Shown one piece after another: positions 1 through 64,000 of a stretch of 64,000 nt of DNA (its first letter is position 1; every line of letters begins with the position of its first letter). A model generated the notes under the pieces. The model was not told the DNA's origin and made no database searches. It saw only the letters and a program-made list of their open reading frames with translations. The position numbers were made by a program, and so were the translations under genes. Source of the stretch: Amphiscolops sp. MND2022 (Eukaryota); the NCBI GenBank assembly GCA_964187785.1, contig OZ076409.1:3536001-3600000 (forward strand). The letters are read 5' to 3'.

Positions 1-3000
1 GATTCCCTTCTTATATGGCACATATTATGGTGTTCTTGCCAAAAAGTCGGTTTTTTAAATACTGCTCAAAAGATTGTCAATACCTGGTTTGATACACTCT
101 GAAGGTCGTATGGAGTTGAGAGACGCTGTGGTTTGGACGATTTTTTTGACATTTTAAAATTTTAGAGTCAATTTTTCGTGTCCTTTTGGCCCATTTTTGG
201 AGGGTTTAAAATTTTTTCATATCCATCATATTTTATTCTAAACAAAATTCTGATAATCTACAATGGAAGTAGAGTTGATCGGTATGTCATAGTTTTCTGT
301 GCTTTCCTCATACGGCAAATGGCGTGCATTTGAAATTTTTTAGGAAATGGTATGTTTTTCTTTCCAAAAAATGTCGGCTTTTTCACATATTGCTCAAAAA
401 CGGGTAAAACTTGTTTTTGCATACTCTGTGGACCACGTGGAGTTGATAGAACCCCAAGAAGCTGTGGTTTGGATGATTTTTCGACATTTTAAAATTTTAA
501 GGTCCATTTTTTCGTGTCATTTTGGCCCATTTTTGGAGGGTTTAAATTTTTTTCATATCCATCAAATTTTATTCTAAACAAAGTTCTGATAGTCTACAAT
601 GGAAGTAGAGTTGATCGGTATGTAATAGTTTTCTGTGCTATTCTCATACGGCAAATGGCGTGCATTTGAAATTTTTTAGGATATGGTATGTTTTTCTTTC
701 CCAAAAATGTCGGCTTTTTAACATATTGCTCAAAAACGGGTAAAACTTGTTTTTGCATACTCTGTGGACAACGTGGATTTGATAGAACCCCAAGAAGCTG
801 TGGTTTGGATGATTTTTTGACATTTTAAAATTTTTAGGTCAATTTTATCGTGTAATTCTGGCCCATTTTTGGAGGGTTTAAAAAAATTAAATATCCATCA
901 AAACTCATTTTAAACTAAATTCGGTTCATCTACAACAAAAGTAGAGTTGATCGGTATGTGATAGTTTTCTGTGCTATTCTCATACGGCAAATGGCGTGCA
1001 TTTGAATTTTTTTAGGAAATGGTATGTTTTTCTTTTCCAAAAATGTCGGCTTTTTCACAAATTGCTCAAAAACGGGTAAAACTTTTTTTTATCATACTCT
1101 GTGGACCACGTGGAGTTGATAGAACCCCAAGAAGCTATAATTTTGATGATTTTTTGACATTTTAAAATTTTAAGGTCAATTTTTTCGTGTAATTTTGTCC
1201 CATTTTCGGAGGGTTCAAAAATTTTTAATATCCATCAAAATTCATTCTAAACAAAAGTCTAATATTCTACACTGGGAGTAGAGTTGATCGGTATATGATA
1301 GTTTTCTGTGCTATTCTTATATGTCATATGGTGTGCATTTGAAATTTTTTAGGAAATGGTATGATTTTTATGACTTTGGTCAAAAAAGTTGGCTTTTTAA
1401 AAATATTTAAATTGAAAAGATATGGGGTTATTACACAAGTCATATACCTAACTTTTTGAGAGGAATCCAATGGTGCCATCGAAAAAATAATTTTTTGGCT
1501 AACATTTTAAGTACTGCCAAAATAACCAAAAAAAGGAAAAAAATTTTCATGATTTTGCAAATTTTTCATCCGGAAATGGTCCAAACACCAATATTAGCAT
1601 TCTTCGATCATAGTTTTTGTTCCAACACTTCACCCCAACCTAAAGAAACAATTCAAAGAGATTTTGAATATTAACTTCTGGTGACAAAGGGTTGAAATAT
1701 TTGAAGGTGTTAGTAGAAAAGAGGAAGTTTTTGTCGTTTACAACACCTTGAGCAACCCATATTACGGTAGAACCTCATTTCACGGCTGAAACTAACACAA
1801 CGTGTTCTGTGTATAAAGTGATTGACGAAAAAGAAATATTTTTTGATGAAATTGCTTTTCACGGTGATTCAAGGCTTTCAACATGTTTACTTCGGATGAG
1901 AGTTTTTGTGTTAAAAACCTACTGTCGCATCTCATATGTTATTAGGGCATATGGTAACAGTCTTTTTGTTGTTTTTGAGTAATTTGGGCCCAGCGGTTTG
2001 CTTCAGAGTAAAAAGTATTGCTTCCCAACCTAAATTTAAAATTGCGACCTGACAAAAATGGGTTTCTCAGAAAAAAATATATAACCTAAGTGTTAGTAAA
2101 TTGACCTCGATCTTATTTATTGCGAATGTCAGCATTGTTAATGGTGTTTTCGAACCTCTTGGGTAAAAAAAGTGGCGTCAGAAGTTGTTGAAACGTTTTT
2201 GCTTTGCATCATTGCAGGTATGTCCGTCCAATATTGTGATTTTTGGAGCTACTGGTATTTTTCCTGCCACATATGTAACGCATGCGAAGGAATTTTTTTC
2301 TAAAAACCGAATAGTTAAGAGTATCTGATCAACCAGAGTGCTCATCTTTATTCTAACCTTTGAATAAAGTAACAGAGAGTATTTTGCCAAGTTACATTTT
2401 CCATGTAATGGGCTAAATGTTTTGGAAAATACAGTAGTATATGGGAAAAAAATGTCTCATACCACCCCTTGAGCAATCCGAATTCTTCAAAAACCCCATT
2501 ATGGTACTGAAACTCACCCTATGCATTCTGTGCACATAGTGATTGACGAAAAAGAGTAAATTTTTGATGAAATCACATTTCACGGTGATCCCAGGCTTGC
2601 GAGATGTTTACTTCGATATAGAGGTTTTGCTCTGTATAACGTCTTATCGCGGCTCATATGTTATTGGAGCCACTGATACCAGTCCCAATCGTGGTTTCGA
2701 GTATCATGGGTCCCACTGGTTACGTCAGAGTTAATAATTTTGCATAAAAAACTGAATTTCAATTTTCGACCTGACAAAATATGGCTATTTTGGTCGAATT
2801 TTTTCTAAGTTAAGTTCCGAATGTGTGAAAAATGACTGAAGATCGGGTGAAAATATTTTTTTCTAACTTTCTAGTACTATAAATGGGTCCTACGTTGCCA
2901 GTAGGACCGTTTGTGAGCATTAGGGCTATATATGACCAGCCTCGATGGAAATATTCAGTTGAAAATGACCAGTTTGTAAATTGAAACTAATTTGTGAAAT

Positions 3001-3605
3001 CCTTGTGAAACACCTATGACCTCGAAAAAAAAATTAAATTCACATTGGATGCAAACTGTTGAGTGTTTGGCTGCGAGTAGGTTCCGACAGAAACCATGGA
3101 TACCAAGGTTTCCACTTTTAAGCTTTCAAAAATTTTTTTCAGAGGTGTTTTTGTCACATTGGTTACATATAGTAGTGAAACCCGAGTCAATTTTGTCAAA
3201 TTTCAGAAAAGAGGAAAAATTTTAGATCTTTTGGGTTTAGTGCATTGCTAGGGCAACGAATTGAAGGTTTAAGACAGTGTACAGCCGATTGACACAAGTT
3301 TTTCAATTTTTTGCATTCGATCTGTTTGTAAAATTTTTCTCAAAAAAACCTCAAAAATCGCACCAAAAAGTGGCTATATCTCGTTACACAATCAAACCAT
3401 CGCTTAACGTCAGCAGGAACTTCGTCTCGTATGCCCAAATTAGGGCCGCATGCAAAAAATGGTACAAATCGTATGGTTCAAAAAAAAGTTCGGTGCCGGA
3501 AAAATTTTCTCTAGTATATAGCGCCGTAAGCTTGGTAAATAGAAGCTCCCGACAGGACCCTACCCGCGGTCGCAAAAAAAGTGGAGATATATCCCCCCCA
3601 CCTAG
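1..3605 (+). repeat. Unit 0, C-type (5'-truncated by window edge)
   Basis: Four ~336 bp repeats, then an A-like body, with the same tail as 33102 and 51896. Confidence 0.85.
40..1400. repeat. Internal ~336 bp tandem repeat, about 4 copies
   Basis: Marker GTAGAGTTGATCGGTAT recurs at ~269, 605, 941 and 1277; boundaries approximate. Confidence 0.9.
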
Positions 3606-5603
3606 CCGCTACCGCGCTCAGGAACACACAAAAAAGAAATTTGCCATACGTCGTCGAAGGGCATGCCTCGGCATGCCCACAGACTATGGGCGTCGGAACG
3701 CTATGTGGCGTTGTACTACAGACACGACGAAGCCGTACCGGGAGGGTGGGACCGACCGATAACGGTAAGAAAAGTAAATGTTATACTTTCTAAAGGTGAG
3801 ACTTGTTGTTTTCATTATTGATTTGTACCTTTCTCGACTAAAAAGTTTTAAAAAAATATCTTCGAGTTCAATTTTTTTTCCAAAGACCGAATGCAATCGT
3901 TATCTGACCTGATGGAAGGAACTAACGATATGATCGAATCACAAAATTAGGCATCGACAGCAACATCCTATAAACAAATGGTCTTTTTGTTGACAGTTTT
4001 TTGATGTGACAGCCTTCCGAAGTTGACACAAGGCCAACTTGAAAGGCTATCACAATATTCATTTAACAGGTGCTTGAAAAATATGCAAAAATTGTCCAGC
4101 AAGGATCGTAGAAAGAGCACATGTCAGCATTGTGAATGACATTTTCAATCAATTTGGGTCCGTAAGGTTGCGTTAGAAGTATATAAAGAGTTTTTAGGCA
4201 CGATCATAGCCATTCTATCTTAGCAAAGTAGCGTATTTTTTAGCTTCGGCTTTTTTTCTGCTACAAATGTAAGTCATCCGATGGGAATTATTTCGGAAAA
4301 CAAAAGAGATGATAGTTTCTGATCAACAACAGTATTCATCTATGTCCTAAATTTTGAATAAAGTAATTGAAAGTATTTTGCGAAGTTAGCGTTTCGAGAT
4401 AATGGGCTAAAAGTTTTAGGAAATATAGTACTATTTAAGAAAAAAGTGTCTCTTACCACCCCTTGAGCAGACCGCTTTCTTCAAAAACCTCATTTTAGTG
4501 CTGAAACTCACCCTACGCATTCAGTGTACATAGTAATTGGCAAAAATGAGTAAAATTTTGGAAAAATCACTTTTGACTGTGATCCCAGGCTTCCGAGATG
4601 TTTACTGCAACTGAGTAGTTTTGTTAAAAATAACGTCTTATCGCAACTCATATGTTATTGGGGCCACTGATACCAGTCCCAATCTTGTTTTCGAGTTTCA
4701 TGAGCCCCACTGGTTACGACAGAGTGAATAGTTTTGCTTCAAAAGTTGAAATTGAATTTTCGACCTATCAAAAAATGGGTTTTTGAGACAAAAATTTTCT
4801 AAGTTAAGTTCCGAATGACTGAAAAATGACTGAAGACCGGGTGAAAAAAATTTTTTAAAACTTTTTATTACTATAAATGGTTCCTACGTTGCCAGTAGGA
4901 CCGTTCTTGAGCAATAAGGCTATACCTGACAGGCCTTGATGGAAATTTTCTGTTGAAAATGACCAGTTTGTAAAATTAAACTAAGTTGTGAAATGCTTTT
5001 GAAACACCTAAGACCTCCAAAAAAATTTTATTTTCACATTGGATGCAAACTGTTGAGCGTTTGGCAGCGAGTAGGTTCTGACAGAAACCATGGATAGCAA
5101 GGTTTTTACTTTAAAGCGAATAAAAAAATTTTTCTGAGGTGTTTTTGTTGTTTTTGTTACTGATAGTTGTGAAAAATCAAGTTTAGTGGGTGAAAAAATC
5201 AAATTTTTGAAAAAATTAAAAACTTTTCATTTTTTGCATTTAGTGCATTGCCACAGTCACGAAATGAAGATTCCGAGCTTGTATAACTGTCAAAGTTCAA
5301 AAATTACTGCATTTCGAGATATTAGACAATTTCTAAAAAATTTTTCAAAATTCATCAATTTTTTGACCAAAAAACGGCCATAACTTTTTTTATAACGTTT
5401 CTATCGCTTAACGTCAGCAGGAACTTCCATTCGTATGCCCATTTTGGGGCCGCATGCAATCTACGATCAAAATCGTATGGTTATTTTTCGAGATCGGTGT
5501 TTTGCGTTTCGCTTTTGGTGTGTAATCTTTTGATCAGATAGCGGCCGCCAGGACCCTACCCCGCGGCCGAGATGAAGTTGGGGAAGAAACCCCCGCCACC
5601 TAG
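3606..5603 (+). repeat. Unit 1, A-type (1998 bp)
   Basis: Bounded by CACCTAG junctions; internal hairpin at ~4005-4054; A-body marker AAGTTAAGTTCCGAATGACTGAAAAATGACTGAAG. Confidence 0.9.
3659..3678. promoter_or_regulatory. GGGCATGCCT-CGGCATGCCC palindrome, a near-consensus p53-family response element (example copy; present at all 20 family-1 heads)
   Basis: Two abutting decamers match RRRCWWGYYY at 19/20 positions; also forms a 9-bp inverted repeat. Function is inferred. Confidence 0.45.
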
Positions 5604-6015
5604 CCCGGGATGTACGGGCGTCGTTAGGTATGTATTTGGTATATGTCGTCGAAGGGCATGCCTCGGCATGCCCACAGACGGTGGGCGTTGATGTAAAGTA
5701 TGTGGCGTTGACGTTAATTAAACTAAAATATGACGTTTCAGCTTCCATAATGAAACGTAATATTCAATTTGAACTTTTATAAATCTGTTACATACATTCC
5801 AATCATAACCATTTGTTAGGTAAATAGATTTCCTGGCATTTAGGACACATTTTGTATAAAAAAAATATTTTTGTCAACAATTAGCTCACTACTATTCTAA
5901 CAACGGAATCATGACGGCTTAGTTTTTGTCGTTGATACACTGTTGATGAAGCTCTAATTGGTACTAATTGAATATATACCTACCCAAAAACACTCTTGAT
6001 TAACGATTTTTGAAG

Positions 6016-6059
6016 GATAGCCCTTTCAAGTTGCCACCAGGCCAACTTGAAAGGCTATC
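6016..6059. other. Internal bulged hairpin, A/B class (GATAGCC.TTTCAAGTTG..CAACTTGAAAGGCTATC); example copy
   Basis: Inverted repeat with one extra base in the left arm; one copy in every A, B and B' unit. Confidence 0.85.
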
Positions 6060-7514
6060 AAAAGGTAACGGTTATGTTGGTTGAGGTTTCGGAGTCTCTG
6101 AAACTATATAGAAAAACTTTAATTTTTAAAAAATAGTCCTTAATAGTCGACAAAGGTACGCCGAAAGACATTTTAAAACCAAAAAACCTATCCTGTCACC
6201 AACGGTTTGGACTTCCGGTGCTATATACCGTTACCCCCCACAAGGTTTGATGACTATGTTCACTACTGCAAACCGTCGAAACACCTAATAGATACTTTTA
6301 TTTACAAAATACTAAACATTTGTACCCAATAGACACAAAATTTGACCATTTCCGGTCGTTTACGGTACCAGGGGGACTTTAGGGTCAACATAACGGTTAT
6401 GTCCGAATGCTCGCCTAACGTCCTCCCTTACATCATACAGTGTCCAAGCACCTATTACCACTCCTTCCGCATCTAAATGCCCTTCAAAAAGTACAAAAAT
6501 GGCAATTTTACTCACATAACGGTCATTTCCGGTCTCGAGGGGTAACGGGGGGTGACTGAAACTATATCCCCCAACTCGTCTCAATGAGTACTACAATAAG
6601 TTACCTAACGTTCCCCGGCTGGGACCGACCCTTTGGGCTCAAAAAGTGACATTTCCGGTCACATAGCGGTTAGGCTGGGGGGCCAAGTCAGTAACGGTGA
6701 TAGATAGCGGAAATCTGTTTGCCCCCCTGAAGGCACCATATCATGGGTATGAAACCTTGTAGTAGTGATGGACACCGTAGCTCCACGCGTTCACGAGATA
6801 TTTACCCCTCAATGCCCATTTTACTGTTTTAGCAGTAAAAAAAGGAGGCGGAAGCCCCATTTCCCGCTAACGGGTTGGTCCAGGGGGTCCCAAACCACAT
6901 GTTTCCGATAGGTCCTTGTCTAAACCTACTTTTGATATATGGCACCCGACGCGCTACTTCCACTCCTTCACACCGAAAATAGCGGTAAAACGTGGAAGGG
7001 GGCATTTTTCCCGCTCATATAACGGTCATTTCCCGTCCGGGGGGTAAACTGGGGTTGGCAAACTGCATGTCCCCCGCTTCGTCTCAAGGCCGTCCCCAAT
7101 ACATCACCTAACGACCCCGCGCTCCGACGACTCCTTCCGGGTCAAAAACCTGCGTTTCCGGAAAAATAACGTTTTGGGCGGGGGGGTACTTGGAGATAGC
7201 TTCAAGATAGAAAAATTTGGTTTGGACCTCCGGGGCCCCTGCAACACGGCCAAGAAACTTTTAGCAGGGTCCCAAAGTTTTAAATCAACAGAAAAAAAGT
7301 TATGTGGCCCAATATGAATTTTACCCCTAAAATGACCCCCTAACGGTCGCCCGTGTGGCCAGAAAAAAATTTTCCGGGGTATGGAACCCGGTGGGGGGCG
7401 CTAATTTTCGGAAAATCTGGTGGGGGCCGCTCCAACTTTAAAATCCTATGGTTAGATCACGAGATCCCGAATCCTATCCAAATTTTCTTAACGAAAGCTG
7501 GCAGCACTGAACTC

Positions 7515-7575
7515 GGATTCAGGACCCTACCCGAATCCTCCAAAAATTTTGTTGGGGTTTCCCCCCCGCACCTAG
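7515..7575 (+). other. Unit 3'-terminal structure (example): stem-loop with AGGACCCTACCC loop, GGGG/CCCC mini-hairpin, CACCTAG
   Basis: GGATTC(7515-7520)/GAATCC(7533-7538) flank the 12-nt loop; GGGGTTTCCCC precedes CACCTAG. Confidence 0.85.
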
Positions 7576-9580
7576 CCGCTACCGCACTTGAGAGTGCGGG
7601 AAAGGCTCATTTGGCATACGTCGTCGAAGGGCATGCCTCGGCATGCCCACGGACGGTGGGCGTTGATGTTGGTATGTGGCGTTGTTATACAAATCACAGG
7701 GTCATGACATAGGCTCAGATCATGGGTGACGGAAGACTGATAACGGAAGAGAAAACAAATGTGATAATATTCAAAGGTTAGAAGTTGTTATTTATTATTT
7801 AGAAATAAAATTATTTACCAAATAATAAACAAAAATGTCTTCGAGTTTATAGGTATTTTTTCAAACTCTGCATGCTATCGTCAGCTGACATGATGGAAGA
7901 TACTAACGGTAGTATACAATCACGAAAATAGGCATCGACAGCAAAATCCGATTAACAAATGGTAGTTTTGTTTATAGTTTTTGGTGGTGATAGCCTTCCC
8001 AAGTTGACACAAGGTCAACTTAAAAGGCTATCACAAGATTCAGTTTAAAGCTACATGTAAAATTTTCAAAAAATGTGCAGTCTGGATTGTAGAAAGAATA
8101 CATGTGAGGACTGTGAACGGTATTTCCAATCATATTGGGTCCATAAGGTTGCGTTAGAAGTATTTAAAGGGTATTTAGGCACAATCATCGCGTTTCTATC
8201 TTAGCAAAATAGCGTATTTTTTATCTTCTGCTTTCTCTTCTGCCATAAATGTAACCCATGCGAAGGTATTTTTTCGGAAAACAAAAAAAATTGAGAGGTT
8301 CTGATCAACCACAGTGTTCATTCATATTCTAACCTTAGAATAAAGTAGTTGAAAGCATTTTGCGAAGTTAGGTTTTTGAGATAATGGGCTAAAAATTTTG
8401 GAAAATATAGTACTGTATGGGAAAAAAATGTCTCATACACACCCTTGAGCAGGCCGATTACATCAAAAACCTCATTATAGTGCTGAAACTCATCCTACGC
8501 ACTCTGTGCACATAGTGATTGACGAAAATGAGTAATTTTTTGATGAAATCACATTTCACAGTGATCGCTGGCTTGCGAGATCTTTACCTCAATTGAGACG
8601 TATTGCTCAAAATAACGTCTTATCGCGACTCATATGTTATTGGAGCCATTGATACCAGTGTCAATCGTTGTTTTGAGTATCATAGGCCCCATGGGTTACG
8701 TCAGAGTTAATAATTTTGCTGAAAAATCTTAATTTCATTTTTCGACCTGACAAAAAATGGGTATTTTGGTCGAAATTTTTCTAAGTTAAGTTCCGAATGA
8801 CTGAAAAATGACTGAAGACCGGGTGAAAATATTTTTTAAAACTTTCTATTACTATAAATGGTTCCTACGTTGCCAGTGGGACCGTTCTATAACATTAAGG
8901 CTATAGCCGACAAGCCTCGATGAAAATATTGTGTTCAAAATGACCAATTTGTAAATTAAAACCATGTTGAGAAATCCTTGTGAAACATCTATGACCTCGA
9001 AAAAAATTTTAAATTCACACTGGATGCAAACTGTTGGGTGTTTGGCAGCGAGTAGGTTCCGACAGAAACCATGGATACCAAGATTTCCAATTTAAAGCAA
9101 ATAAAAATTCTTTTCTGATGTGTTTTTGACATATGAGGTACTGATAGTAGTGAAAAAAATTCAAAAATCTCGAATTTTCGAAAAATGTAAAAACTTTACA
9201 TCTTTTGTGTTCAGTGCAATGCCACAGCCACGAAATGAAGGTTCCAAGCTTGTTTCACAGTCAAAGTCCAAAAATTAACACATTTTGAGATATTAAGTGA
9301 AAAATTAGAAATTTCCCAAAAATGTTGAAATTTTGAACAAAAAATTGGCCATAACTTTTTATAAAGTTTTTAGAACGCTTAGCGTCAGCAGGAACTTCGT
9401 CTTGCAATAGGATTTGAGGGCCGCATGCAAATTTTGAGCAAATTCTAATGGTTAGATTAAATTTTAGGTCTTTTTTTTGCAATTTCTGCTACATACCGCT
9501 AGCTTAAGGCGGATCGTCGGCCGCCAGGACCCTACCCGTCGGCCGAATACAAACGGGGTGAAATTTCCCCGCCCACCTAG
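7576..9580 (+). repeat. Unit 3, A-type subtype A2 (2005 bp)
   Basis: Near-identical to units at 20343, 24326 and 45121; hairpin at ~7987. Confidence 0.9.
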
Positions 9581-47127: not shown

Positions 47128-50100
47128 CCGCTACCGCAATCGGGTGTAGATATAAAAAGTAGTTGGCATACGTCGTCGAAGGGCATGCCTCGGCATGCCC
47201 ACAGACGGTGGGAGTCGGAACGCTATGTGGCGTTGTAAAATGAAGACAAGCGAGAGACATGGTAAGGTGCTTGTTATGATGGATGATAAAAGTAGAAGAT
47301 ACCAAAATCAAAACAAATTATCAATTTTCATAAAAAAAAATTTTAAAAAATGTTAATCGGTTGTGATTTGGAAACGCTAAAGACGTGTTTATGTATTTAA
47401 ACTCTTCGCGAATGCAAAATTTGGATGACAGTCATTTGGCAAACGTACATTCCCAGAGAAGGGGATAGAATGAATGTACTTAATGGCATAAAAAAATAGG
47501 AAAAACAAAGACTTGTGAGTAAATTTTATCATAATAGATCGAAAACTTCCATCATGTACACTAAGCTAATGCCACCAAAGGAACCCACGCATACATGCTC
47601 GAATCGAAAATACTGCAATTTCTGAACGCTTTCCACGCCATTATTCATATAATAATTAGTTTCGCACTATTATGGTCAAAAATTGAACTATCCTCTAAAG
47701 ATCATAAATCAACGTCATCTTCAGATAAAGGTAAGTTCTACACGTTATTTATTTTAACTAAAATGATGCATTCCACATTCATTCCTTTACTATCTTTGTT
47801 GTGTAGACGTTTCATGATTTTGGAAGGCGGGAAAGTTTTGAGACAACTTGTATTCTTCCTGTCATACCTTTGTTCACTGGGTAATACAGTCGAACTTAAC
47901 TGCGAAAAATATGTATGTCTTATGGTTTTGTTCTGCAGAAATAAAAGGTGAAGCAAAAAATCTTGAAGTTATTAGAAGAATAATTATTCTTTCATCATTT
48001 CAGCTGTTACAGTAAGTGTTACAAAAGATAGAAAGATCTAAGTTTTTAGTTTTTGAAAAGTACATTCTCATCTCCCCGATAGGGAGATGGAATGTACTTA
48101 AGTGTTTTTTGTTATCGAATTGTTAAGATTGAAGTTGATTGGACGTATTCCATTGACTTTTCGATGAAACTTGGAATCCATTTACGTATTATCACATCTC
48201 AACCTTTTATGAAGCTCACATTCAAAAAACATCAAGTATATATTTTTTTGCTAATTTAGAATATTAGACAGGGTATATATGTGGAATGATTCACTTCTTA
48301 TATTGAACATATTATGGTTTTCTTCAGAATAAAATTGGTCTTTTTAATTATCGCCCAATGTTAATAACTTGTTTGGTATACTCTGAAAGTCATATGGAAA
48401 TGATAGAACCCCAAGAAGCTGGGGTTTTGATGAATATCTGACATTTTAATACTTAGGGTCAATTTTTCCGTGTGATTTTGGCCCATATTAGGAGGGTTTA
48501 AAATTTATAAATATTCATCAAAAGTTATTCTAAGAAAACTTCTGGTAATCTACAAAAAGAGTAGAGTTGATTGGTATGTGATAGTTTTCTGTGCTATTGT
48601 TATACGCCAAATGGCGTGCATTTGAAGTTTTTTAGGAAATGATATGTTTTTCTTCCTCAAAAAATCGGCTTTCCTAAATTTTGCTCAAAAACGCGCAAAA
48701 CCTGGTTTGGCATACTCTGTGGGCCATGTGGAGTTGATAGAACCTCAAGAAGCTGTGGTTTTGATGATTTTTAGACATTTTAAAATTTTAGGGTCAATTT
48801 TTTCGTGTAATTTTAGCCCATTTTCGGATGGTTCAAAATTTTTTATTATCCATCAAAATTCATTCAAAACAAAGTTCTAATAATCTACAATAGGAGTAGA
48901 GTTGATCGGTATATGATAGTTTTCTGTGCTATTCTTATACGCCAAATGGCGTGCATGTGAATTTTTTTTAGGAAATGTTATGTTTTTCTTTCCCAAAAAT
49001 GTCGGCTTTTCCACATATTGCTCAAAAACGGGTAAAACCTGTTTTAGCGTACTCTGTGGACCATGTGGAGTTGATAGAACCCCAAGAAGCTGTGGTTTTG
49101 ATGATTTTTCGACATTTTAATATTTTAAGGACAATTTTTTCGTGTAATTTTTGCCCACTTTTGGAGGATTTATATTTTTTTATTATCCGTCTAATTTTCA
49201 TTTAAACTAACTTCTAATCATCTACAATGAAAGTAGAGTTGATCGGTATGTGATAGTTTTCTGTGCTATTCTCATACGGCAAATGGCGTGCATTTGAAAT
49301 ATTTTAGGAAATGGTATGTTTTTCTTTCCCAAAAATGTCGGCTTTTTCACATATTGCTCAAAAACGGGTAAAACCTGTTTTAGCGTACTCTGTGGACCAC
49401 GTGGAGTTGATAGAACCCCAAGAAGCTGTGGTTTTGATGATTTTTTGACATTTTAAAATTTTAAGGTCAATTTTTTCGTGTAATTTTGGTCAATTTTTGG
49501 AGGGTTCAAAATTTTTTAATATTCTTCAAAATTCAATCAAAACAAAATTCTAATAGTCTACAATGGGAGTAGAGTTGATCGGTATATGATAGTTTTCTGT
49601 GCTATTCTTATACGTCAAATGGAGTGCATTTGAAATTTTTTAGGAAATGGTATGATTTTTAGGATTTTCGTCAAAAAAGTTTGCTTTTTAAATTTATTTA
49701 AATTGAAAAGATACGGGGTTATTACACATGTCTTATAATCAACTTTTTGAGCGGAATCCAATGGTGCCTTCGAAAAAATTATTTATCAGCTAACATTTTT
49801 AGTACTGCCAAAATAACCAAAAAAGGAAACAATTTTTTCTTGATTTTGCGATTTGTTCATCCGGACATGGTCCAAACACCAATACTAGCATTCTTCGATC
49901 ATAGTAATTGTTCTAACAATTCACCACAACCTTAAGAAACAATTCAAAGAGATTTTGAATATTAACTTCGTGTGACAAAGGGTTGAAATATTTGAAGAAG
50001 TTAGTAGAAAAGAGGAAGTTTTTGCCTTATACAACACCTTGAGCAACCGATATTACGGTAGAACCTCATTTCACGACTGAAACTAACACAACGGGTTCTG

Positions 50101-51896
50101 TGTATTTAGTGATTGACGAAAAAGAAATATTTTTTGATGAAATCACTTCTCACGGTGATTCAAGGCTTTCAACATGTTTACTTCAGAATGAGAGTTATTG
50201 TGTTAAAAACATACAGTCGCATCTCATATGTTATTAGAGCATATGGTGATAGTCTTTTTGTTGTTGTTGAGTATTTTGGGCCCAACGGTTTGCTTCAGAG
50301 TGAAAAGTATTGCTTCCAAAACCAAATTTGAATTTGCGACCTGACAATAATGGGTTTCCGAGAAAAAAATTTAAAACCTAAGTGTTAGTAAATAGACCTC
50401 GATCTTATTTATTGCGAATGTCAGCATTGTTAATGGTGTTTTCGAACCTCTTGGGTAAAAAAAGTGGCGTCAGAAGTTGTTGAAACGTTTTTGTTTTGCA
50501 TCATTGGAAGTCTGTCCGTCCAAATTTTTGATTTTTGGAGCTACTGGTATTTTTCCTGTCACATATGTAACGCATGCGAAGGGTTTTTTTCTAAAAACCA
50601 AATAGTTAATAGTTTCTGATCAACCAAACTGTTCATCTATATTCTAAGCTTTCACTAAAGTAACTGAAAGTACTTTGTCGAGTTAGTTTTACCAGATAAT
50701 GGGCTAAAATTTTTGGAAAATACAGTAGTATATGGGAAAAAAATGTCTCATACCACCCCTTGAGCAACCCGAATCCTTCAAAAACCTCATTATAGTGCTG
50801 AAACTCACCCTACGCACTCTGTGCACATAGTAAATGGCGAAAATGGGTAAATTTTTGATGAAATCACATTTCACTGTGATCCCAGGCTTGCGAGATGTTT
50901 ACTTCGATTTAGAGGTTTTGCTCTGTATAACGTCTTATCGCGGATCATATGTTATCGAAGCTACTGATACCAGTCCCAATCGTGTTTTTGCGTATCATGG
51001 GCCCCACTGGTTACGTCAGAGTTAATAATTTTGCATAAAAAGGTGAATTTCAATTTTCGACCAGAGGAAAAATGGGTTTTTGAGACGAAATTTTTCTAAG
51101 ATAAGTTCCGAATGTCTGAAAAATGACTGAAGAACGGGTGAAAAAAATTTTTTATAACTTTGTATTTCTATAAATGGTTAATACGTTGCCAGTAGGACCA
51201 TTCGTGAGCAATAAGACTCTATCCGACACGCCTCGATGGAAATATGATGTTGAAAATGACCAATTTGTAAATTGAAACTAAGTTGTGAAATCCTTGTGAA
51301 ACACCTATGACCTCGAAAAAAAATTTATATTCACATTGGATGCAAACTGTTGAGTGTTTGGCTGCGAGTAGGTTCCGACAGAAACCATGGATACCAAGGT
51401 TTCTAAATTTAAGCAAATAAAAATTTTTTTCTGAGGTGTTTTTGTCACATTGGTTACATATAGTAGTGAAACCCGAGTCAATTTGGTCAAATTTTTGGAA
51501 AATGTAAAAGTTTTAGATCTTTTGGGTCTAGTGCCTTGCTAGGGCAAAGAATCGAAGGTTTAAACCAGTGATAGGTCGATTGTCACAAGTTTTTCAATTT
51601 TTTGCATTCGAGATGTTTGTAAAATTTATCTCAAAAATACCTCAAAATTCGCACCAAAAAGTGGCTATATCTCGTTACACAATGAAACCATCGCTTAACG
51701 TCAGCAGGAACTTCGTCTTGTATGCCCAAATTAGGGCCGCATGCAAAAAATGGTACAAATCCTATGGTTCAAAAAAAAGTTCGGTGCCGGAAAAATTTTC
51801 TCTAGTATATAGCGCCGTAAGCTTGGTAAATAGAAGCTCCCGACAGGACCCTACCCGCGGTCGCAAAAAAAGTGGAGATATATCCCCCCCACCTAG
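47128..51896 (+). repeat. Unit 20, C-type (4769 bp)
   Basis: Near-identical to unit 13; 4x336 bp repeat at ~48330-49690. Confidence 0.9.
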
Positions 51897-54800
51897 CGAT
51901 GGAGCGATTTAGAGCACTGCTAGTAAAAGGCCTAAACAAAACGGCACAACTTTTGCTAATGGATTATGAAAAAAAATTGAATCTGGCACTTTTGTGTAAG
52001 TTATTCCGGGATTCAACGATAAATATCATCACCCTGCCAAGTAAATGTCTATGGTGGCTGCCGTCAACTTAACAAAAAGGTATACTGAGGCTTTTTGCCT
52101 TCTAAGCAAGCACCGTTGTTCCCTCGAGATGCTGCGCAACCCTCGGAACACCGGTGACAAAGAATTTTGCTAACCGATTTGCAAAAACTTAATTATCACT
52201 TTAAGGCATTTTTTGGCATAACTTATGCCCTAGGGCTGTTTTGCTTGGTACAGAAGGTACACCCCAGCCCCCTAATCAGTTTCAAGTTTGCTGCAGCTGC
52301 TTCCAGTACTGCATCAAATCCAACTCAAAGTGATACAATTAATTCTCATCCAATCACTCATAATGACATACACCCCAAAAATCGAATTTTTAATTATGAT
52401 CCCCCCAGGTGTATGAATTATGTTTTTGAAACCGCCATTGAATGCTGATAATTTTTGACCTTATTGTCAGAGACCGTGCGGACCGTTCCGGCTTCTCAAA
52501 TCAGTGATTTGATGATAGTGATTCAGTCAAAAAAATTATTTTGGCACTTTTCGGCACTTTGGTTGCCCCCCGGGGGAAATTTTTTGCACCGTTCGAAAGA
52601 CCGTTGACCGCTGATGATTTTCATAAAAGTGCACTTTGCCGCTATCGGTATTCCTTCAAGGTGAAAATGGCCTTTGATTCGGTGATTGATTAATCAATGT
52701 TAAAAAAGGTTAAAAAAACCAAAAAAACGCAAAAAAACCCTCGAAAATGAATTTTCCCAGAAAAACGTCAGCAGGAAAAAGTTCTTAGAATTTGCTCTTC
52801 TATCTGTGTGCAAATTTTCAGCCAAATCCAATGGTTCATTTTCGAAATCGTCTCCGGAGCACCCCTGATCGGGGTTTGTAATAGATGATATGATGGGCTC
52901 GGCTCGGGGCCCCTCCCCCGGCTCGCAAAATTTTTTTGAGGGCTGATATGCCCGGACCACCTAGCGATGGAGCGATTTAGAGCACTGCTAGTAAAAGGCC
53001 TAAACTTAACAGCGCAACCTTTGCTAATGGAGTATGAAAGAGAAATATTGAGGCTAGCAATTTTTTGGAAGTTATTCTGGGATTGAACGATAAATATCAT
53101 CACCCTGACGAGTGAATGTCTATGGTGACTGCCGTCAACTTAACTCAAGGGATTTTGTGGTTTTTTGCTTTCTAAGCAAGCACCGTTGTTCCTGCGAGAT
53201 GCTGCGCAACTCTCGGAACACCGGTGACAATAAATTTTGCTGAACGATTTGCAATAACCTAATCATCACTTTGAGGCATTTTTGGCACAACTTATGCCCT
53301 AGGGCTGTTTTGCTCGATACAGAGGGTAAACCCCAGCCCCATAATCAGTTTCAAGTTTGCTGCAGCTGCTTCCTGTGCTGCATCATATCCAACTGAAAGT
53401 GATACAATTATTTCTCATCCAATCACTCATAATGACATATACCCCAAAAAATCAACTTTTTTCTGATGTCTCCTACAGGTGAACGAATTACATTTTTGGA
53501 ACCCCCATTGGATGCTGACAATTTTTGACCTTATTGTCCGAGACCGTGCGGACCGTTCCGGCTGCTCAAATCATCAATTTGATCAAAGTGATTCAGTCAA
53601 AAAAATAATTTTGGCACTTTTCGGCACTTTGGTTTCCCCCGGGGGGAAATTTTTTCGGACCGTTCGAAAGAACGTTGACCGTTGATGATTTTCATAAAAG
53701 TGCACTTTGCCGCTACGGGCTTTCCTTCATGGTGAAAATGGCCTTTGATTCGGTCATTGATTAATCAAAGATGAAAAAAGATGAAAAAAACCAAAAAAAA
53801 CCCAAAAAAACCCTACAAAATGAATTTTCCTGGAAAAACGTCAGCAGAAAAAAATTCTTAAATTTTTGAGATAAAGCCACATGCAAAGTTTCAGACAAAC
53901 CCTACGGGTGAATTTCGAGATCGGTTAAAATACTTCGCAATCCTGAAGGTAGGAATTGATAGAATGTGCTCGGCTCTCGGGACCCTCCCCGGCCTCGCAA
54001 TATTTTCTGAAGCGATTTAGAGCACTGCTAGGTAGAGGCTTAAACAAAACAGTTGAAAGTTTGTTACTGAAGTATGACACAAACAAATATCCCACGCTAA
54101 ATCTTTTGTGTATGTTGTTCACAATTCAACAATAAAAATATCATCACACTGCCGAAAAAGGCCAATGGTGACCTCCGTCACGTCACCAAAGAGGTATGTT
54201 GGGTTTTGCGTTCGAAACAAGCACCGTTGTTCCTGCGAGATGCTGCGCAACTCTCGGAACACCGGTGACAATAAATTTTGCTGAACGATTTGCAATAACC
54301 TAATCATCACTTTGAGGCATTTTTTGGCACAACTTATGCCCTAGGGCTGTTTTGCTCGATACAGAGGGTAAACCCCAGCCCCATAATCAGTTTCAAGTTT
54401 GCTGCAGCTGCTTCCTGTGCTGCATCATATCCAACTGAAAGTGATACAATTATTTCTCATCCAATCACTCATAATGACATATACCCCAAAAAATCAACTT
54501 TTTTCTGATGTCTCCTACAGGTGAACGAATTACATTTTTGGAACCCCCATTGGATGCTGACAATTTTTGACCTTATTGTCCGAGACCGTGCGGACCGTTC
54601 CGGCTGCTCAAATCATCAATTTGATCAAAGTGATTCAGTCAAAAAAATAATTTTGGCACTTTTCGGCACTTTGGTTTCCCCCGGGGGGAAATTTTTTCGA
54701 ACCGTTCGAAAGACCGTTGACCGTTGATGATTTTCATAAAAGTGCACTTTGCCGCTACGGGCTTTCCTTCATGGAGAAAATGGCCTTTGATTCGGTCATT

Positions 54801-55076
54801 GATTAATCAAAGATGAAAAAAGATGAAAAAAACCAAAAAAAACCCAAAAAAACCCTACAAAATGAATTTTCCTGGAAAAACGTCAGCAGAAAAAAATTCC
54901 TAAATTTTTGAGATGAAGCCACATGCAAAGTTTCAGACAAATCCTACGGGTGAATTTCGAGATCGGTTAAAATACTTCGCAATCCTGAAGGTAGGAATTG
55001 ATAGAATGTGCTCGGCTCTCGGGACCCTCCCCGGCCTCGCAATATTTTCTGATGGGCATCCCCCTTGACCACCCAG
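51897..55076 (+). repeat. Family-2 (E-type) units x3: 51897-52964, 52965-54010, 54011-55076 (~1.05 kb each)
   Basis: Head (CGATGG)AGCGATTTAGAGCACTGCTAG; hairpin CACCGTTGTTCC..GGAACACCGGTG at 52111, 53181 and 54222; GG(A/G)CCC(C)TCCCC tail box. Confidence 0.9.
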
Positions 55077-57153
55077 TGGAGGCAAAGCTACCAATTACCA
55101 GGGGGCCGAACGGTACTGTCTGTTCTCAATTCATGTATAACTTGTTCCACTTTGGGGTCACTGATGTGAATTTTTGCCGATGCACATCGCAACGACGTAC
55201 ATAATCATGTCGAACAAAACTAAACAGTGACTGCCTTCGGTCGTAACAAGTATCTACAGCCTTCCTTCCGGGTCACCGTTGTTCCTGCGTGCTGCTGTGC
55301 ATCCCTCGGAACACCGGTGACAAATTAAATTACGTTTTAAAATCGTGCTACTTATGCATTTGCCTCAACCCTGAGTATTTTTCAAATACTTACTGAAACT
55401 GGTATATCAAGCTGGTGAAAGCGGTCAATATTAAAAATAAACCCATTTTGACGCCGTTGACGCGATAATTAATGTGATTTTTGAATTCCTGGTATAAAAA
55501 TACAATGGAAACTGAAAAATTTTTTTTTTGAAAAAATTCGCAATTTTTAGAATTTTTGTAGAACTTTTGTAGAACTTTTTTATTTTTTATTTTTTATCCT
55601 GGCAACGTGATGTTGAAAACACATCGACTGCACTGCTACCGTTCAAGTAAACACCATCTCATCCAAAGTTCGGAAGTTATGACGCGATGACCGGATAATT
55701 CACAATTTTCCACTCATTTATCCCCTTCTATCTCTCAGCCTAGTATCACCAGCCTAATGATTTTTGGCATGCAAACACCTGACATCATTTATGCCTCGCA
55801 TGCAAAGTATCAGCCAATTGTATCCACATGCTGCAGATATCGCAGCGAAAAAGTACCGAAACAGGGTGAAAAAACCGATCATTTGCTCATAACTTCCCGC
55901 CAAGTAATAGGATCATGTTTGACCAGCAGAACATCATTTGTACATCGGCAAGATAAGTACACATGCAAAGTTTAAAGAAGTTTTATCGGTTCAATTCGAA
56001 AATCGCCGTTTTTTGACTGGTGTGCTAGATGATATAGTTCGACACGCGAAAATTAAGCTCGGCATCGGGACCCTCCCCGGCCTCGCACTAAATAATGTGG
56101 GGAACTACCCCGGACCACCCAGTGGAGGCAAAGGTACAATCACGAGAAAGGCCGTAATGACAATTTAGAGATAAGCAATGAGGCGAAAATCACAGGATAA
56201 CGACCATCAATTGTTTGCTCGGTACAAAAGTTGCTCAAAAGTGTTCTTTTATCTGCAATATTTCATCCTATAACGCACGCGCGAAGCACCGCAGGTGATG
56301 TACAGGGCATGGTTGTTTGTTATCACCGTTCTTCCTCCGAACTGCTTCGCGGTCCTCCGGAGAACGGTGATGTTGTTATTTACAATTCAACAAAAGTTTA
56401 CTGACACATTAAGTTGCAACAACTGAAGCAACAGTTCAGTATTGTCTCATGTACCTTTTCTGACCTCTGAAACCCCTTTAATTGTCACCGCAAGTGCAGA
56501 GTCACTTCTTTTTCGCGTCCAAAATGTGAAAAAGCATCGGAAAACGAAAAATTTTTTTTTTGAAAAATTCGCAACTTTTAGAATTTTGGTTGAACTTTTG
56601 TAGAACTTTTATGTTTTTTATTTTTTATCCTGACCAAGCGATGTTGAAAACACATCGACTGCACTGCTACCGCTCAAGTAAACACCATCTCATCCAAAGA
56701 TCGGAAGATTTGACGCGATGACCAGAAAATTGACGATTTTTAACTTCTTTTTCCTCTTCTATCTCTCAGCCTAGTATCACCAGCCTAATGATTTTTGGCA
56801 TGCAAACAGCTGACATCATTTATGCCTCGCATGCAAAGTATCAGCCAATTGTATCCACATGCTGCAGGTATCGCAGCGAAAAAGTACCGAAAATGGGTGA
56901 AAAACCCGATCATTTGCTCATAACTTCCCGCCAAGGGATAGGATCATGTTTGACCAGCAGAACATCAGTCATACATCGGCAAGATGAGTGCACATGCAAG
57001 GTTTCAAGAACTTTTATCGGTTCAATACGAAAATCGCCGTTTTTTGACATGTGATCTATAGGATATAGTACGACACGCGAAAATTATGCTCGGCATCGGG
57101 ACCCTCCCCGGCCTCGCACTAAATAATGTGGGGAACTTCCCCTGACCACACAG
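55077..57153 (+). repeat. Family-3 (F-type) units x2: 55077-56122, 56123-57153
   Basis: Head TGGAGGCAAAG; hairpins at 55272-55321 and 56322-56371; 3' ~600 bp shared; ends GACCACCCAG / GACCACACAG. Confidence 0.85.
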
Positions 57154-61463: not shown

Positions 61464-62036
61464 CTAACGACCTTGATGACGACGTCGCTGCGCAGAGCGG
61501 TTCCTGTTAATTCTTTTGTATAACATCAATTGATGCAGATTATTTGCACCAAACACACGTTGAATGAAATGATGTTCTACTTCAAGATTGACATGGAAAT
61601 AGTTCATTGCTAGCAAATCACGATAGTGTCTTGACAGTAATGGTCGTAATTTAATGAAGACGATATTTTCAGTGAAGGGCTCCAGATGATCGTCCACATT
61701 GAACACTGCATCAGGTCTTGGAATGTAGCAAAACGCAACAACATTCAATGTTGCCAGGTGCTCTAGTTCAGCCCGAAATTGCATTGGGTTAAGGGGCTGT
61801 GTTGATTGAGTGGGATGATGCGATATACTGTTGGAGATAACATCGTGCCAAAGTATAAACTGTTCAGTTCTCCAGTTTCTTTTCCTAATTACCTGATGCA
61901 CATTTTTCAGACAATTCGAATTGACAAGGGACATTCCTGGTTCTGTGACAACCTGATTTTCGAAAGGCCACAATTGGAAAATGGGGTTATTGACGGCGTG
62001 GTGCAAACTGGAGGCCCCAATTACAGTTACTTGCAT
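61464..62036 (-). CDS. SGNH/GDSL-hydrolase-like protein (~190 aa from MQVTVIGASS)
   Basis: N-terminal VTVIGASS resembles block I (GDS), then PG, ILWHDVISN (block III-like) and C-terminal NYFH (DxxH-like); motifs are degenerate. TTTACAG acceptor-like site 7 nt before the ATG. Confidence 0.55.
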   Translation of the reverse strand: MQVTVIGASSLHHAVNNPIFQLWPFENQVVTEPGMSLVNSNCLKNVHQVIRKRNWRTEQFILWHDVISNSISHHPTQSTQPLNPMQFRAELEHLATLNVVAFCYIPRPDAVFNVDDHLEPFTENIVFIKLRPLLSRHYRDLLAMNYFHVNLEVEHHFIQRVFGANNLHQLMLYKRINRNRSAQRRRHQGR

Positions 62037-63977: not shown

Positions 63978-64000
63978 TATTGTAGTAATAAGTGAACTTC

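Follow-up and report, generated by a model that had tools for sequence, protein, structure and literature searches.

Tandem or adjacent Helitrons, and Helitrons that integrate at specific targets, have already been described. A group of three tandem copies was attributed to 5′-end insertion or to rolling-circle replication (PMC5148889), and centromeric arrays were found to contain both autonomous and non-autonomous Helitrons (PMC13404089). Canonical Helitrons (HLE1) display a 5′-TC, a 3′ hairpin with CTRR on the ORF strand and insertion between A and T. Helentrons carry an apurinic/apyrimidinic endonuclease fused to the RepHel protein, and Helitron2 (HLE2) elements present asymmetric terminal inverted repeats, hairpins at both ends and T^T or T^C insertion. 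Within the literature searched, a GIY-YIG nuclease occurs in only one HLE2 family, from a moss (PMC11417382). The array described here, from Amphiscolops sp. MND2022, is built over its whole length of Helitron-like rolling-circle transposons. Each unit is joined exactly to the CTAG end of the adjacent one, a pattern pointing to preferential insertion of these elements at one another's ends, whereby satellite-like DNA would be built.

Architecture of the array

The window (the whole 64,000-nt stretch analysed, contig OZ076409.1, positions 3,536,001 to 3,600,000) contains 26 complete or truncated units that all-against-all BLAST places, as assembled, in the order C,A,B,A,B',A,B,A,A,A,B,A,A,C,A,C,A,D,B,A,C,E,E,E,F,F. 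A previous sequence-only reading had proposed this irregular order, with no spacer. The BLAST order and best-partner distances agree with it and do not fit a simple higher-order repeat; no spacer DNA separates units anywhere in the window. That reading had also confined the array to 1–57153. A chain of units does fill this interval, but its limits did not hold, as units continue on both sides: upstream of position 1 they are found out to 45 kb or more, and to the right of 57153 an 18.8-kb unit G is followed by F, F and a second G. The array is at least 125 kb long and runs in a single direction. All units below are assigned to the minus strand, which is that of the RepHel ORF of their autonomous relatives, the head-to-tail direction of the units being plus, and each interval, that of G excepted, closes at a unit end.

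Type A comprises unit 2 (3606–5603, a divergent subfamily), unit 4 (7576–9580), unit 6 (12372–14383), units 8, 9 and 10 (16378–22354, with ends at 18367 and 20342), which represent different subfamilies and are only ~81% alike as neighbours, units 12 and 13 (24326–28341, end at 26331), unit 15 (33103–35088) and unit 17 (39852–41851). Type B is found as unit 3 (5604–7575, tail CGCACCTAG), unit 7 (14384–16377) and unit 11 (22355–24325), and units 19 (B) and 20 (A) (43128–47127, end at 45120) form one of four (B,A) blocks. Unit 5 (9581–12371), of type B', has ~58% in common with B by all-against-all BLAST, and its extra part holds an ORF (10210–10635, plus strand) with a marginal PB2-like Pfam match. 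The type C units are characterized by an internal 336-bp tandem repeat, located at 121–1369 (3.7 copies) in unit 1 (1–3605, truncated at the window start), at 29605–30865 in unit 14 (28342–33102, 4761 bp), at 36282–37619 in unit 16 (35089–39851) and at 48401–49660 in unit 21 (47128–51896), which is 98% identical to unit 14. Type D is represented by unit 18 (41852–43127, 1276 bp), type E by units 22–24 (51897–55076, ends at 52964 and 54010) and type F by units 25–26 (55077–57153, end at 56122), whose tails are CCACCCAG and CCACACAG. The first 6.8 kb of unit G, starting with the F-like head TGGAGGCAAAGG, occupy 57154–64000, and G ends 11,967 bases past the window.

The modules had been regarded as unrelated, a view which the termini contradict: units have transposon ends in common, and A, B, B', C and D possess one ~60-nt tail and one conserved head box of ~95 nt. 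E, F and G have another head and tail in common, distinct from those of the A–D set. A and C are alike over ~1 kb at 82–84%. Variable head segments form a mosaic with respect to the bodies, having sometimes been exchanged between body families. The non-coding, non-autonomous families are A, B, B', C, D, E and F, and G and a separate 13.8-kb element are their autonomous relatives. Simple segmental duplication accounts for part of the array, with four copies of a (B,A) block (90–98%), a 6.5-kb (A,C) block duplicated at 96% and a repeated 20.9-kb (F,F,G) block. The best partner of units 1–21 (A, B, B', C, D) lies 2–20 units away, unit 9 being the exception with a neighbour as partner; for units 22–26 (E, F) it is the neighbour. 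Same-family neighbours are ~81–94% alike. Satellite DNA with a higher-order repeat, which would show one repeating block and greatest likeness between neighbours, does not fit the irregular order and the distant best partners of units 1–21; partial duplicated blocks exist.

The CTAG junction

The motif CAC[CA][CT]AG terminates 25 of the 26 units, reading CCACC[TC]AG at 20 ends, CGCACCTAG at four (all B-to-A junctions) and CCACACAG at one (57153). The remaining end, at the E-to-E junction 54010, has no motif because ~30 nt were deleted across the junction, together with hairpin and CTAG. CCACCYAG is present 21 times in the window (20 on the plus strand) against 1.68 expected, a count that none of 100 shuffles reached, and a 19-nt junction word, for which 0 occurrences are expected, is found 17 times. 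The claim that one tail precedes six heads is confirmed by GGGGTGAAATTTCCCCGCCCACCTAG, which occurs seven times with six different heads next to it.

The fixed junction that had been proposed is also supported, as similarity between copies breaks a few bases from the end of CTAG, not only within the window but also at ~80 junctions in other parts of the genome, and breakpoints are not scattered across the 80 distinct junction contexts. In 46 pairs with the same head and different tails, similarity stops 7–17 nt to the left of the CTAG end. In 199 pairs with the same tail and different heads, it stops to the right by 0–3 nt (87 pairs), 10–13 nt (99 pairs, corresponding to a common CYGCTACCGC) or 17–34 nt (13 pairs). 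At least eight head families follow CTAG, and the junction recurs at ~80 places on at least nine contigs, unit lengths being consistent. Of the 191 genomic copies of one head type, 189 come after CACCTAG and none after a base other than G; in C1:70.6–76.4 Mb, all 75 copies among those listed lie on one strand. Loci were taken around matches and genome searches score best candidates only, so solo copies could escape these counts.

Terminal structures

The example junction at 26262–26440 displays four hairpins. The first is a stem-loop whose conserved loop reads GGACCCTACCC, the second is the G4/C4 hairpin of the tail, 6–7 nt before the CTAG end, and the other two are a variable head hairpin and a head-box hairpin, GGGCATGCC-TCG-GCATGCCC. 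Folding of the junction gives z = -3.05 and -3.57, and 0 of 200 shuffles fold equally well. Around the conserved loop, 4.73 of 8 arm positions are paired, compared with 3.36 ± 0.19 in controls (maximum 4.0, 2000 shuffles), and the stems are compensatory, for example GGATTC/GAATCC, GGAATC/GATTCC and GCCGGC/GCCGGC. After 5′-CTAGGTGG, with which every unit begins on the coding strand, come a hairpin and then a further stem-loop, whose loop reads GGGTAGGGTCC. Heads begin with CYGC, CGAT, TGGA, ACGT or CGCT. Of 25 units, 7 carry a perfect 8-nt inverted repeat, GGTGGGCG/CGCCCACC, and five more have 6–7-nt versions of it, all 12 being A or C.

Autonomous elements and mobility of single units

Unit G and the 13.8-kb element encode proteins of 2,400–2,800 aa on the opposite strand, antisense to the unit direction. 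By their sequences, these proteins carry a Helitron Rep domain (HUH, two Tyr) together with a PIF1 helicase, with a GIY-YIG nuclease at the C terminus. The G ORF, on the minus strand just beyond the window, specifies a 2816-aa RepHel-GIY-YIG protein with Pfam matches to PIF1, GIY-YIG (38 bits, over the cut-off) and Helitron_like_N (29.5 bits). For P0001 (2377 aa) the matches are Helitron_like_N (E 5e-10), PIF1 (6e-11) and GIY-YIG (21 bits, under the cut-off). The HxH, RY(L/V)xxY, Walker A GPPGTGK(T/S) and GIY...YIG motifs are kept in 11 of 11 aligned proteins of 26–99% identity, PF01541 is precomputed on 15 of 30 homologues, and the helicase part resembles Pif1 structures and Helraiser (7lcc). 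The features that define RepHel proteins, namely HUH, two catalytic Tyr and a PIF1-type SF1B helicase, are all found. The proteins fall into two lineages of ~33% identity, and at least 21 intact ORFs of 2350–2386 aa were identified.

A search for RepHel (HUH) genes had been suggested by the sequence-only reading, and units of these arrays do carry such genes, with the common junction as their boundary. Three copies of the 13.8-kb element are ~98% alike and lose similarity exactly after CCACCTAG on one side and after CACCTAG on the other. All six autonomous loci from the protein search lie inside arrays, with 31 tails pointing one way and 0 the other. E, F and G have both head and tail in common, and A–D and the 13.8-kb element have tail architecture and CTAG end in common. 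The A–D head box is absent from all six autonomous copies examined.

Individual units have moved from one chromosome to another, each as a discrete piece. A copy of D on C2 differs at 4 of 1276 nt (99.7% identical) and has unrelated neighbours, the flanks of the two copies being 52–56% alike, which is the random level. Moreover, 39 of 39 other matches to D stop at its last base, unit 6 (A) is 98% identical to a copy on another chromosome (C2) against 97% for its best match within the array, and F unit boundaries recur at other loci. One D adjoins single-copy DNA (CTAG directly followed by TTTTCAAAC); this is the sole right array edge seen, and the single edge bearing on target-site duplication, which Helitron-like elements do not make. 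Among the loci examined there was neither a left array edge nor an empty-site/filled-site pair, and no direct insertion event was observed in the assembly loci compared.

Origin of the array

The reading that we favour, and hold to be probable, is that Helitron-like elements use the CTAG end of resident relatives, where Rep would cleave, as their integration site, with local segment duplication thereafter. The transposase would recognise the ~60-nt end and nick exactly at the CTAG boundary, and the identical cut at a resident copy would serve as integration site. A new copy would thus land flush with the CTAG end of its relative and in the same orientation, and the array would therefore grow unit by unit. 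Later, read-through into neighbours, unequal crossover and head-box recombination may have duplicated and reshuffled blocks. The unit anatomy, the fixed junction, the RepHel genes and the movement of individual units are established here; integration itself, the cleavage site, the targeting and the addition of units one by one at existing ends, possibly through circular intermediates, are our inference. Against this reading count the absence of the A–D head box from the autonomous copies, the shortness (8 nt) of the terminal inverted repeat and its near-restriction to A and C, the head-segment swaps, the simple block duplications including (F,F,G), and the head box itself, where homologous recombination could reorder units.

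Alternatively, arrays of the same Helitron-like units may have arisen mainly from unequal crossover, ectopic homologous recombination or re-integration of extrachromosomal circles through homology in the head box and tail, the precise junction being only the limit of homology. The head box and the 19-nt junction word common to A–D, the mosaic head segments, the (B,A), (A,C) and (F,F,G) blocks and the plain deletion at 54010 all point this way. We nevertheless consider this origin unlikely: C-to-E, E-to-F, D-to-E, tail-to-13.8-kb-element and tail-to-CGCTGCAGGC-type joins lack head homology yet use the same base, 87 of the 199 pairs lose similarity 0–3 nt past CTAG, A units next to one another are no more than ~81% alike, and the 99.7% D copy on the other chromosome has unrelated units on both sides, sharing just 8 nt with the unit to its left. 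Less likely again are hetero-multimers formed before or during transposition, by terminator bypass or by Rep joining strands of different elements, and inserted as blocks at ordinary sites, which would make targeting of resident ends unnecessary. Identical multi-unit blocks at several loci and the uniform unit direction fit such multimers, and termination bypass is the published account of tandem Helitrons in bat and Bombyx (PMC4067079). However, bypass copies existing neighbours and creates no new adjacencies among the at least eight head families, same-family neighbours are mutually old (~81–94%), unlike fresh concatemers, and for one head type a tail precedes 189 of the 191 copies, no array with that head first in unique DNA having been found. 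A cassette system driven by a tyrosine or serine recombinase at CACCTAG, integron-like or other, or an assembly artefact, has the cassette-like look of the array in its favour and is highly improbable. The units are without genes, no recombinase family is matched by the 41 window ORFs, the two large ORFs or three further element ORFs, and ~80 recurrences on at least nine contigs with consistent unit lengths are not what an assembler would invent.

Integration at resident CTAG ends may extend further, and here our view is tentative, falling somewhat short of an even chance: the RepHel/GIY-YIG lineage may be near-obligately self-targeting, accepting the CTAG end of any resident relative, even of the ~33%-identical lineage. 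The family would therefore lie almost wholly in uniformly oriented chains of up to megabase size (C1:70.6–76.4 Mb). If true, such chains would act as transposon-built satellite DNA, perhaps as centromere-associated DNA.

Comparison with known systems

The array resembles integron cassette arrays in that its modules follow one another in a single direction and meet at a conserved site, and it had been labelled integron-like. This label is not sustained, as integrase, attI, attC or attC-like sites and gene cassettes are all missing and the host is a 1.07-Gb eukaryotic genome. Integrons rely on IntI, attI/attC and promoterless gene cassettes, and 0 of 41 window ORFs of at least 90 aa match an integrase or recombinase family; one of the 41 has any Pfam match, marginal and unrelated. 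IS200/IS605 elements such as IS608 use an HUH transposase that acts on single-stranded DNA hairpins and insert directly beside a short specific sequence, their own end-cleavage site, which is the logic proposed for this array. They are bacterial, their single-Tyr enzyme has no helicase and, since they do not end in their own target, they are not known to form chains.

Among eukaryotic systems, the canonical Helitron was rejected, as the hairpin is antisense to the ORF, heads are not TC and no A^T site is seen; the Helentron was rejected for want of an Exo_endo_phos match, GIY-YIG being found instead. Of the HLE2 traits, hairpins at both ends are present and the 8-nt inverted repeat occurs mainly in A and C units. 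Like Helentron/HLE2 elements, those of the array have a RepHel protein with an extra nuclease domain, a hairpin at either terminus, and a short inverted repeat which, on the coding strand, lies 3 nt inside the 5′ end and again directly before the 3′ hairpin (layout as in PMC3627910). Further points of likeness are non-coding derivatives far outnumbering autonomous copies, an ORF sometimes inverted relative to the ends (PMC3627910, PMC5148889) and internal tandem repeats comparable to the 336-bp repeat of C (PMC4067079, PMC7492417). In contrast, the elements here carry GIY-YIG rather than an apurinic (APE) endonuclease, begin with CTAGG rather than T, show no evident T^T target, have their 3′ inverted repeat ~80 nt from the end rather than 20–60, and lie flush together rather than dispersed. 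Tandem or adjacent Helitrons of bat, Bombyx, maize, rice and wheat centromeres, Metarhizium and Meloidogyne centromeres also form head-to-tail clusters. Unlike these, the chain here consists almost only of elements. They belong to at least eight head families and, by their proteins, to two lineages (~33% identity), and are joined to the exact base without intervening host DNA. The arrays are 125 kb or longer, probably extending to megabases. The telomere-targeting Helitrons of Paramecium (PMC13085455) likewise combine sequence-specific integration with absolute orientation bias, variable ORF orientation relative to the ends and rich internal satellites; their target is the telomeric repeat of the host, whereas the apparent target here is the family's own end.

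Organisation of the array

The window (C1:3536001–3600000, + strand) belongs to a 1.07-Gb eukaryotic assembly of 1929 contigs and is almost entirely repetitive. It contains 21 copies of the junction word CCACCYAG (20 on the + strand; 1.68 expected), a number that none of 100 shuffles reaches. Similarly, the 19-nt word CCCACCTAGCYGCTACCGC, searched at up to three mismatches, is found 17 times, each with 0 or 1 mismatch, where 0 would be expected. Borders placed at the junction-word sites and at two sites from self-comparison define 26 units, which all-against-all BLAST groups into the non-coding types C,A,B,A,B',A,B,A,A,A,B,A,A,C,A,C,A,D,B,A,C,E,E,E,F,F. The number and order of units proposed in the sequence-only reading are thus recovered, with motif enrichment far beyond chance. 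CCACC[TC]AG closes 20 of the 26 units; every end joining a B tail to an A head (four of 26) is CGCACCTAG, one further end is CCACACAG and the E-to-E end at 54010 has lost ~30 nt across the junction. The tail GGGGTGAAATTTCCCCGCCCACCTAG occurs seven times and, as that reading had stated, is followed by six different heads. Its description of the modules as unrelated does not hold: A, B, B', C and D have a common head box and tail, to which the E/F tail is related, A and C have ~1 kb in common at 82–84%, and B and B' share ~58%. Each C unit contains a 336-bp tandem repeat of 3.7–4.0 copies with 87–90% matches (121–1369, 29605–30865, 36282–37619 and 48401–49660); similar internal repeats have been described in the non-autonomous partners of Helentrons.

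The array extends upstream of the window by at least 45 kb of units. Beyond 57153 it continues into the 18.8-kb unit G, which has an F-like head, terminates 11,967 bases past the window with the same tail and is followed by F, F and G again. Adjacent A units in the window are ~81% alike and partners 6–8 units apart up to 97–98%, and block duplications are evident as (B,A) four times, (A,C) over 6.5 kb at 96%, and (F,F,G). Unit order and pairwise unit similarity rule out a simple higher-order repeat as the whole explanation.

Joining of units at a fixed junction

The junction survey covers ~400 kb, comprising the window and loci chosen around search hits, and contains 80 distinct junction contexts. 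Pairs with the same head and different tails (n = 46) lose similarity 7–17 nt left of the junction, a stretch consisting of the common CACCTAG and part of a hairpin. Pairs with the same tail and different heads (n = 199) lose it 0–3 nt right of the junction in 87 cases, after 10–13 nt in 99, corresponding to the common CYGCTACCGC, and after 17–34 nt in 13. At least eight head families follow the CTAG unit end; of the 90 raw rows behind this count, one matches the antisense strand of a head box by chance. CAC[CA][CT]AG is present within 70 nt upstream of 72 of 75 head boxes, and the remaining three have, respectively, a doubled variable segment, a CATACCTAG tail and a CACCGAG tail. A CCCTACCC-type motif lies 30–90 nt upstream in 63 of the 66 distinct junctions that have a head box, and two of those that lack it carry a point variant. 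Genome-wide, the head CYGCTACCGCACTCCAGAGTGCGG follows G in 191 instances and another base in none, and in 189 it follows exactly CACCTAG. The sequence-only reading depended on breakpoints that are fixed rather than scattered, and across the 80 contexts the ends of pairwise similarity place them at CTAG. One sequencing run in contig form was listed, containing 0.11 of the words, and no RNA run; its contigs are short and none spans a junction with 31 nt on both sides.

A few junctions outside the window display tiny TAG-ended pieces between a tail and the next head, of 32 nt (CAGCTACCGC...CTAG), 13 nt and 7 nt (CAAATAG, at two loci). They are located at L003 (minus, before 3576), L029 (minus, 8220), L028 (+, 1584) and the joined C3 loci L041–L039 (3219–3226), and could represent minimal units, abortive ones or terminal duplications. 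At L022 (G000:C1:23970001–23980000, G000 being the whole assembly) oppositely oriented units meet near a 200-N run; this apparent inversion may be an assembly gap artefact.

Structure of the unit ends

Units A, B, B', C and D start with a variable segment of 20–40 nt, mostly with CYGCTACCGC at its beginning, behind which lies a conserved head box of ~95 nt, TTGGCATACGTCGTCGAAGGGCATGCCTCGGCATGCCCAC...GGGCGT...TATGTGGCGTTG, whose pattern is matched 19 times at up to three mismatches (expected 0.03). The A–D tail (~60 nt) is formed by a stem-loop with the loop GGACCCTACCC, an A/T-rich stretch, a G4/C4 hairpin and CCACCTAG. The heads of E and F differ from these (CGATGGAGCG and TGGAGGCAAAG), and their tail, GGGACCCTCCCC...hairpin...CCACC[CT]AG, is related to that of A–D.

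Folded as single-stranded DNA, a 179-nt junction region forms four hairpins on either strand (z = -3.05 and -3.57), an equal fold appearing in none of 200 shuffles. The arms around the conserved 12-nt loop RGGNCCCTNCCC are paired on average at 4.73 of 8 positions in 45 distinct tails, compared with 3.36 ± 0.19 for control arms dealt among sequences (maximum 4.0 in 2000), and the stems vary by family (GGATTC/GAATCC, GGAATC/GATTCC, GCCGGC/GCCGGC and CGGTTG/CAACC). A conserved loop carried on compensating stems looks like a candidate protein-recognition hairpin. In 59 of 78 contexts the distance between loop motif and junction is 50–52 nt, under a pattern restricted to spacings of 20–70 nt. Read on the coding strand, that of the RepHel (Rep and helicase) ORFs and antisense to unit direction, the layout is 5'-CTA-GGTGGGCG-hairpin ... 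CGCCCACC-(6 nt)-hairpin-TTCGACGACGTATGCC-variable segment-3', and therefore an 8-nt inverted repeat is positioned 3 nt from the 5' end and directly upstream of the 3' hairpin. This repeat is short and is seen mostly in A and C units; a search for terminal inverted repeats linking the tail to the head start CYGCTACCGC found none. The variable segment is mostly tied to its downstream body, with some swaps. It forms a small hairpin of its own in 20 of 52 distinct versions (better than shuffles, z < -1.5), with compensatory inner pairs (CCGC-ACT/AGT-GCGG, -CGT/ACG- and -GGT/ACC-), a proportion that rules the hairpin out as a universal feature.

Dispersal of single units and extent of the chains

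A search with D plus 300 nt of each neighbour gives 40 long hits on C1, C2, C3, C4, C6, C7 and two small contigs, and many alignments begin 8–17 nt before D or end at its last base. The C2 copy differs from the window D at 4 of 1276 nt and is embedded in unrelated flanks (52–56% identity), with another tail type before it and an E head after it. The C3 copy closes an array, and its CTAG adjoins TTTTCAAAC..., a flank absent elsewhere in the genome; all 39 other hits end at the end of D (positions 296–300 of 300). An array left edge was sought as well, and the 4 kb upstream of the C3 array edge is still array. The boundaries of F recur likewise at other loci, and unit 6, an A, is 98% identical to a C2 copy versus 97% to its best window partner. 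Because copies of D, F and unit 6 stand elsewhere, and because distant partners in the window are more alike than adjacent A units, both single-unit dispersal and later block duplication have occurred.

On C1:70583996–76440608 (~6 Mb) one A-type head lies on the minus strand in 75 of the 75 copies listed, the RepHel ORFs are on the plus strand and the sampled loci are chains throughout. This suggests a megabase-scale, uniformly oriented domain, perhaps a single giant chain or a region associated with a centromere.

RepHel-GIY-YIG proteins and autonomous elements

A Pfam scan of the 41 window ORFs of at least 90 aa gave no recombinase or Rep match. The integron-like or recombinase-driven system envisaged in the sequence-only reading is rejected on this result and on the lack of a recombinase match in the two large ORFs and three further element ORFs. 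The sole window ORF with a Pfam match (10210–10635, +, unit B', 142 aa) is assigned marginally to Flu_PB2_6th (E 7.4e-6; 26.1 bits, cut-off 25), with no protein atlas support (recognition 1366, no family), and could be a captured orthomyxovirus-like gene fragment or a chance match.

RepHel genes, which that reading had proposed to look for in the flanks, are present in the same chains and bounded by the same junction. Among the 150 matches listed, a genome search with Pfam Helitron_like_N finds at least 21 intact ORFs of 2350–2386 aa, several of them near arrays of A units. P0001 (2377 aa), the product of one of these ORFs, matches Helitron_like_N (E 5e-10) and PIF1 helicase (6e-11), with a weak C-terminal GIY-YIG match of 21.1 bits, below the cut-off of 22.6. 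The unit G ORF has 2816 aa, of which the 2553 aa within one locus match PIF1, GIY-YIG (38.4 bits) and Helitron_like_N (29.5 bits), with OTU as a weak further match. Across 11 aligned proteins (26–99% identity) the HxH motif, the RY(L/V)xxY tyrosine pair, Walker A and GIY...YIG...R...HN are kept throughout. PF01541 is present in the precomputed annotation of 15 of 30 homologues, all 30 from ENA, JGI or Logan records. The helicase part resembles Pif1 structures and Helraiser, and the best three protein atlas matches of the C-terminal part are clusters, two with PIF1 and GIY-YIG and the third with PIF1, AAA_19 and Helitron_like_N. These domains and motifs identify the ORF products as Helitron-like transposases that carry a GIY-YIG nuclease.

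A 13.8-kb autonomous element has copies on C1, C6 and C8 that are ~98% alike. In unit direction their similarity begins right after CCACCTAG and ends at CACCTAG, with different neighbours on both sides. An end ~100 nt inside the next head was dropped, since the variable segment before the head box differs among the three copies and the stretch is the head box common to all units. The ORFs of this element and of G are both antisense to unit direction. All six autonomous loci examined, which were identified through the protein rather than through an array, are located within chains; across their 125 kb, 31 tails point one way and none the opposite way.

Downstream of its RepHel gene, unit G contains minus-strand open frames of 159–335 aa with no Pfam match (58257–59261, 60574–61050, 61467–62201 and 63321–63998) and a 132-bp tandem repeat of 1.9 copies (62615–62863). 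Part of G is related, by sequence similarity, to a separate satellite, a tandem array of ~1.4-kb period at G000:C4:39951338–39985200 (minus) that matches positions 1360–1802 of the G stretch 57154–61153 at 64–68%. A second, more canonical Helitron family (G000:C8:51740782, C2:22247247, C13:53137676 and others, L009–L018), has full-length Helitron_like_N matches of ~205 bits in open frames that reach 1320 aa; it appears to have no relation to the chains.

Proposed mechanism of chain growth

All families share only the tail side of the junction, and their heads vary; recognition of the junction must therefore rely on the tail, the 5' end in coding-strand terms. In the simplest model a nick by the Rep nuclease at the CTAG boundary would start rolling-circle transposition (on the other strand, end it), and the same nick at a resident copy would be reused for strand transfer of an incoming copy, leaving it flush against the resident in the same orientation. 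A conceivable role for the GIY-YIG domain would be nicking of the second strand or of the target. In IS608 the target sequence doubles as the end-cleavage site, a logic that the targeting model would share. The model fits several features of the chains: families that lack homology are joined with base precision, all units point the same way, a head hardly ever occurs without a tail before it, the two protein lineages (~33% identical) are found together in a single chain, and at the right edge a tail meets unique DNA. Against it, recombination in the shared head box clearly contributes, no insertion polymorphism, no empty site and no left edge were found among the loci chosen around search hits, and the A–D head box was found in none of the six autonomous copies.

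If these elements do integrate at each other's ends, a concrete and testable path leads from transposons to satellite-like arrays, since unit-by-unit addition at a defined nick together with block duplication would yield heterogeneous 'cassette' arrays without a recombinase. Studies of single-strand DNA integration would also benefit from an HUH-helicase-nuclease enzyme that recognises a defined ~60-nt end and joins DNA at a base-exact site. In practice, arrays of this kind are easily mistaken for satellites or missed in annotation.

Comparison with known Helitron-like elements

Judged by their protein, the chain elements are certainly Helitron-like, and by the defining features of those groups they are neither canonical Helitrons (HLE1) nor Helentrons, which have an apurinic endonuclease where these transposases have GIY-YIG. 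No description of a RepHel-GIY-YIG lineage in heterogeneous, base-exact chains was found in the literature searched, subscription journals and bioRxiv supplements aside. Helitron2 is described with the same inverted-repeat arrangement (PMC3627910), although the repeat found here is short and seen mostly in A and C units. Terminator bypass is the explanation given for tandem Helitron clusters in PMC4067079, which also reports distant Helitrons 'directly next to one another' in bat, Bombyx and maize; PMC4224331 supports composite transposition through end bypass. Fungal Helitron2-like elements with self-insertion, multiple termini, three tandem copies and inverted ORFs are described in PMC5148889. 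Centromeric Helitron arrays are reported in plants (Xiong et al. 2016, as cited in PMC5148889 and PMC13404089) and in Meloidogyne (PMC13404089). GIY-YIG in a Helitron-like element is mentioned once (PMC11417382), for a moss family of the HLE2 group, the one family in the searched papers from which the architecture was known and to which, if the model is true, the present chains add. Sequence-specific, orientation-biased integration in telomeric repeats is proposed for Paramecium Helitrons in PMC13085455, and beside these telomere-targeting elements the chain elements would, on the targeting model, take their place as a target-specific member of the Helitron-like elements.
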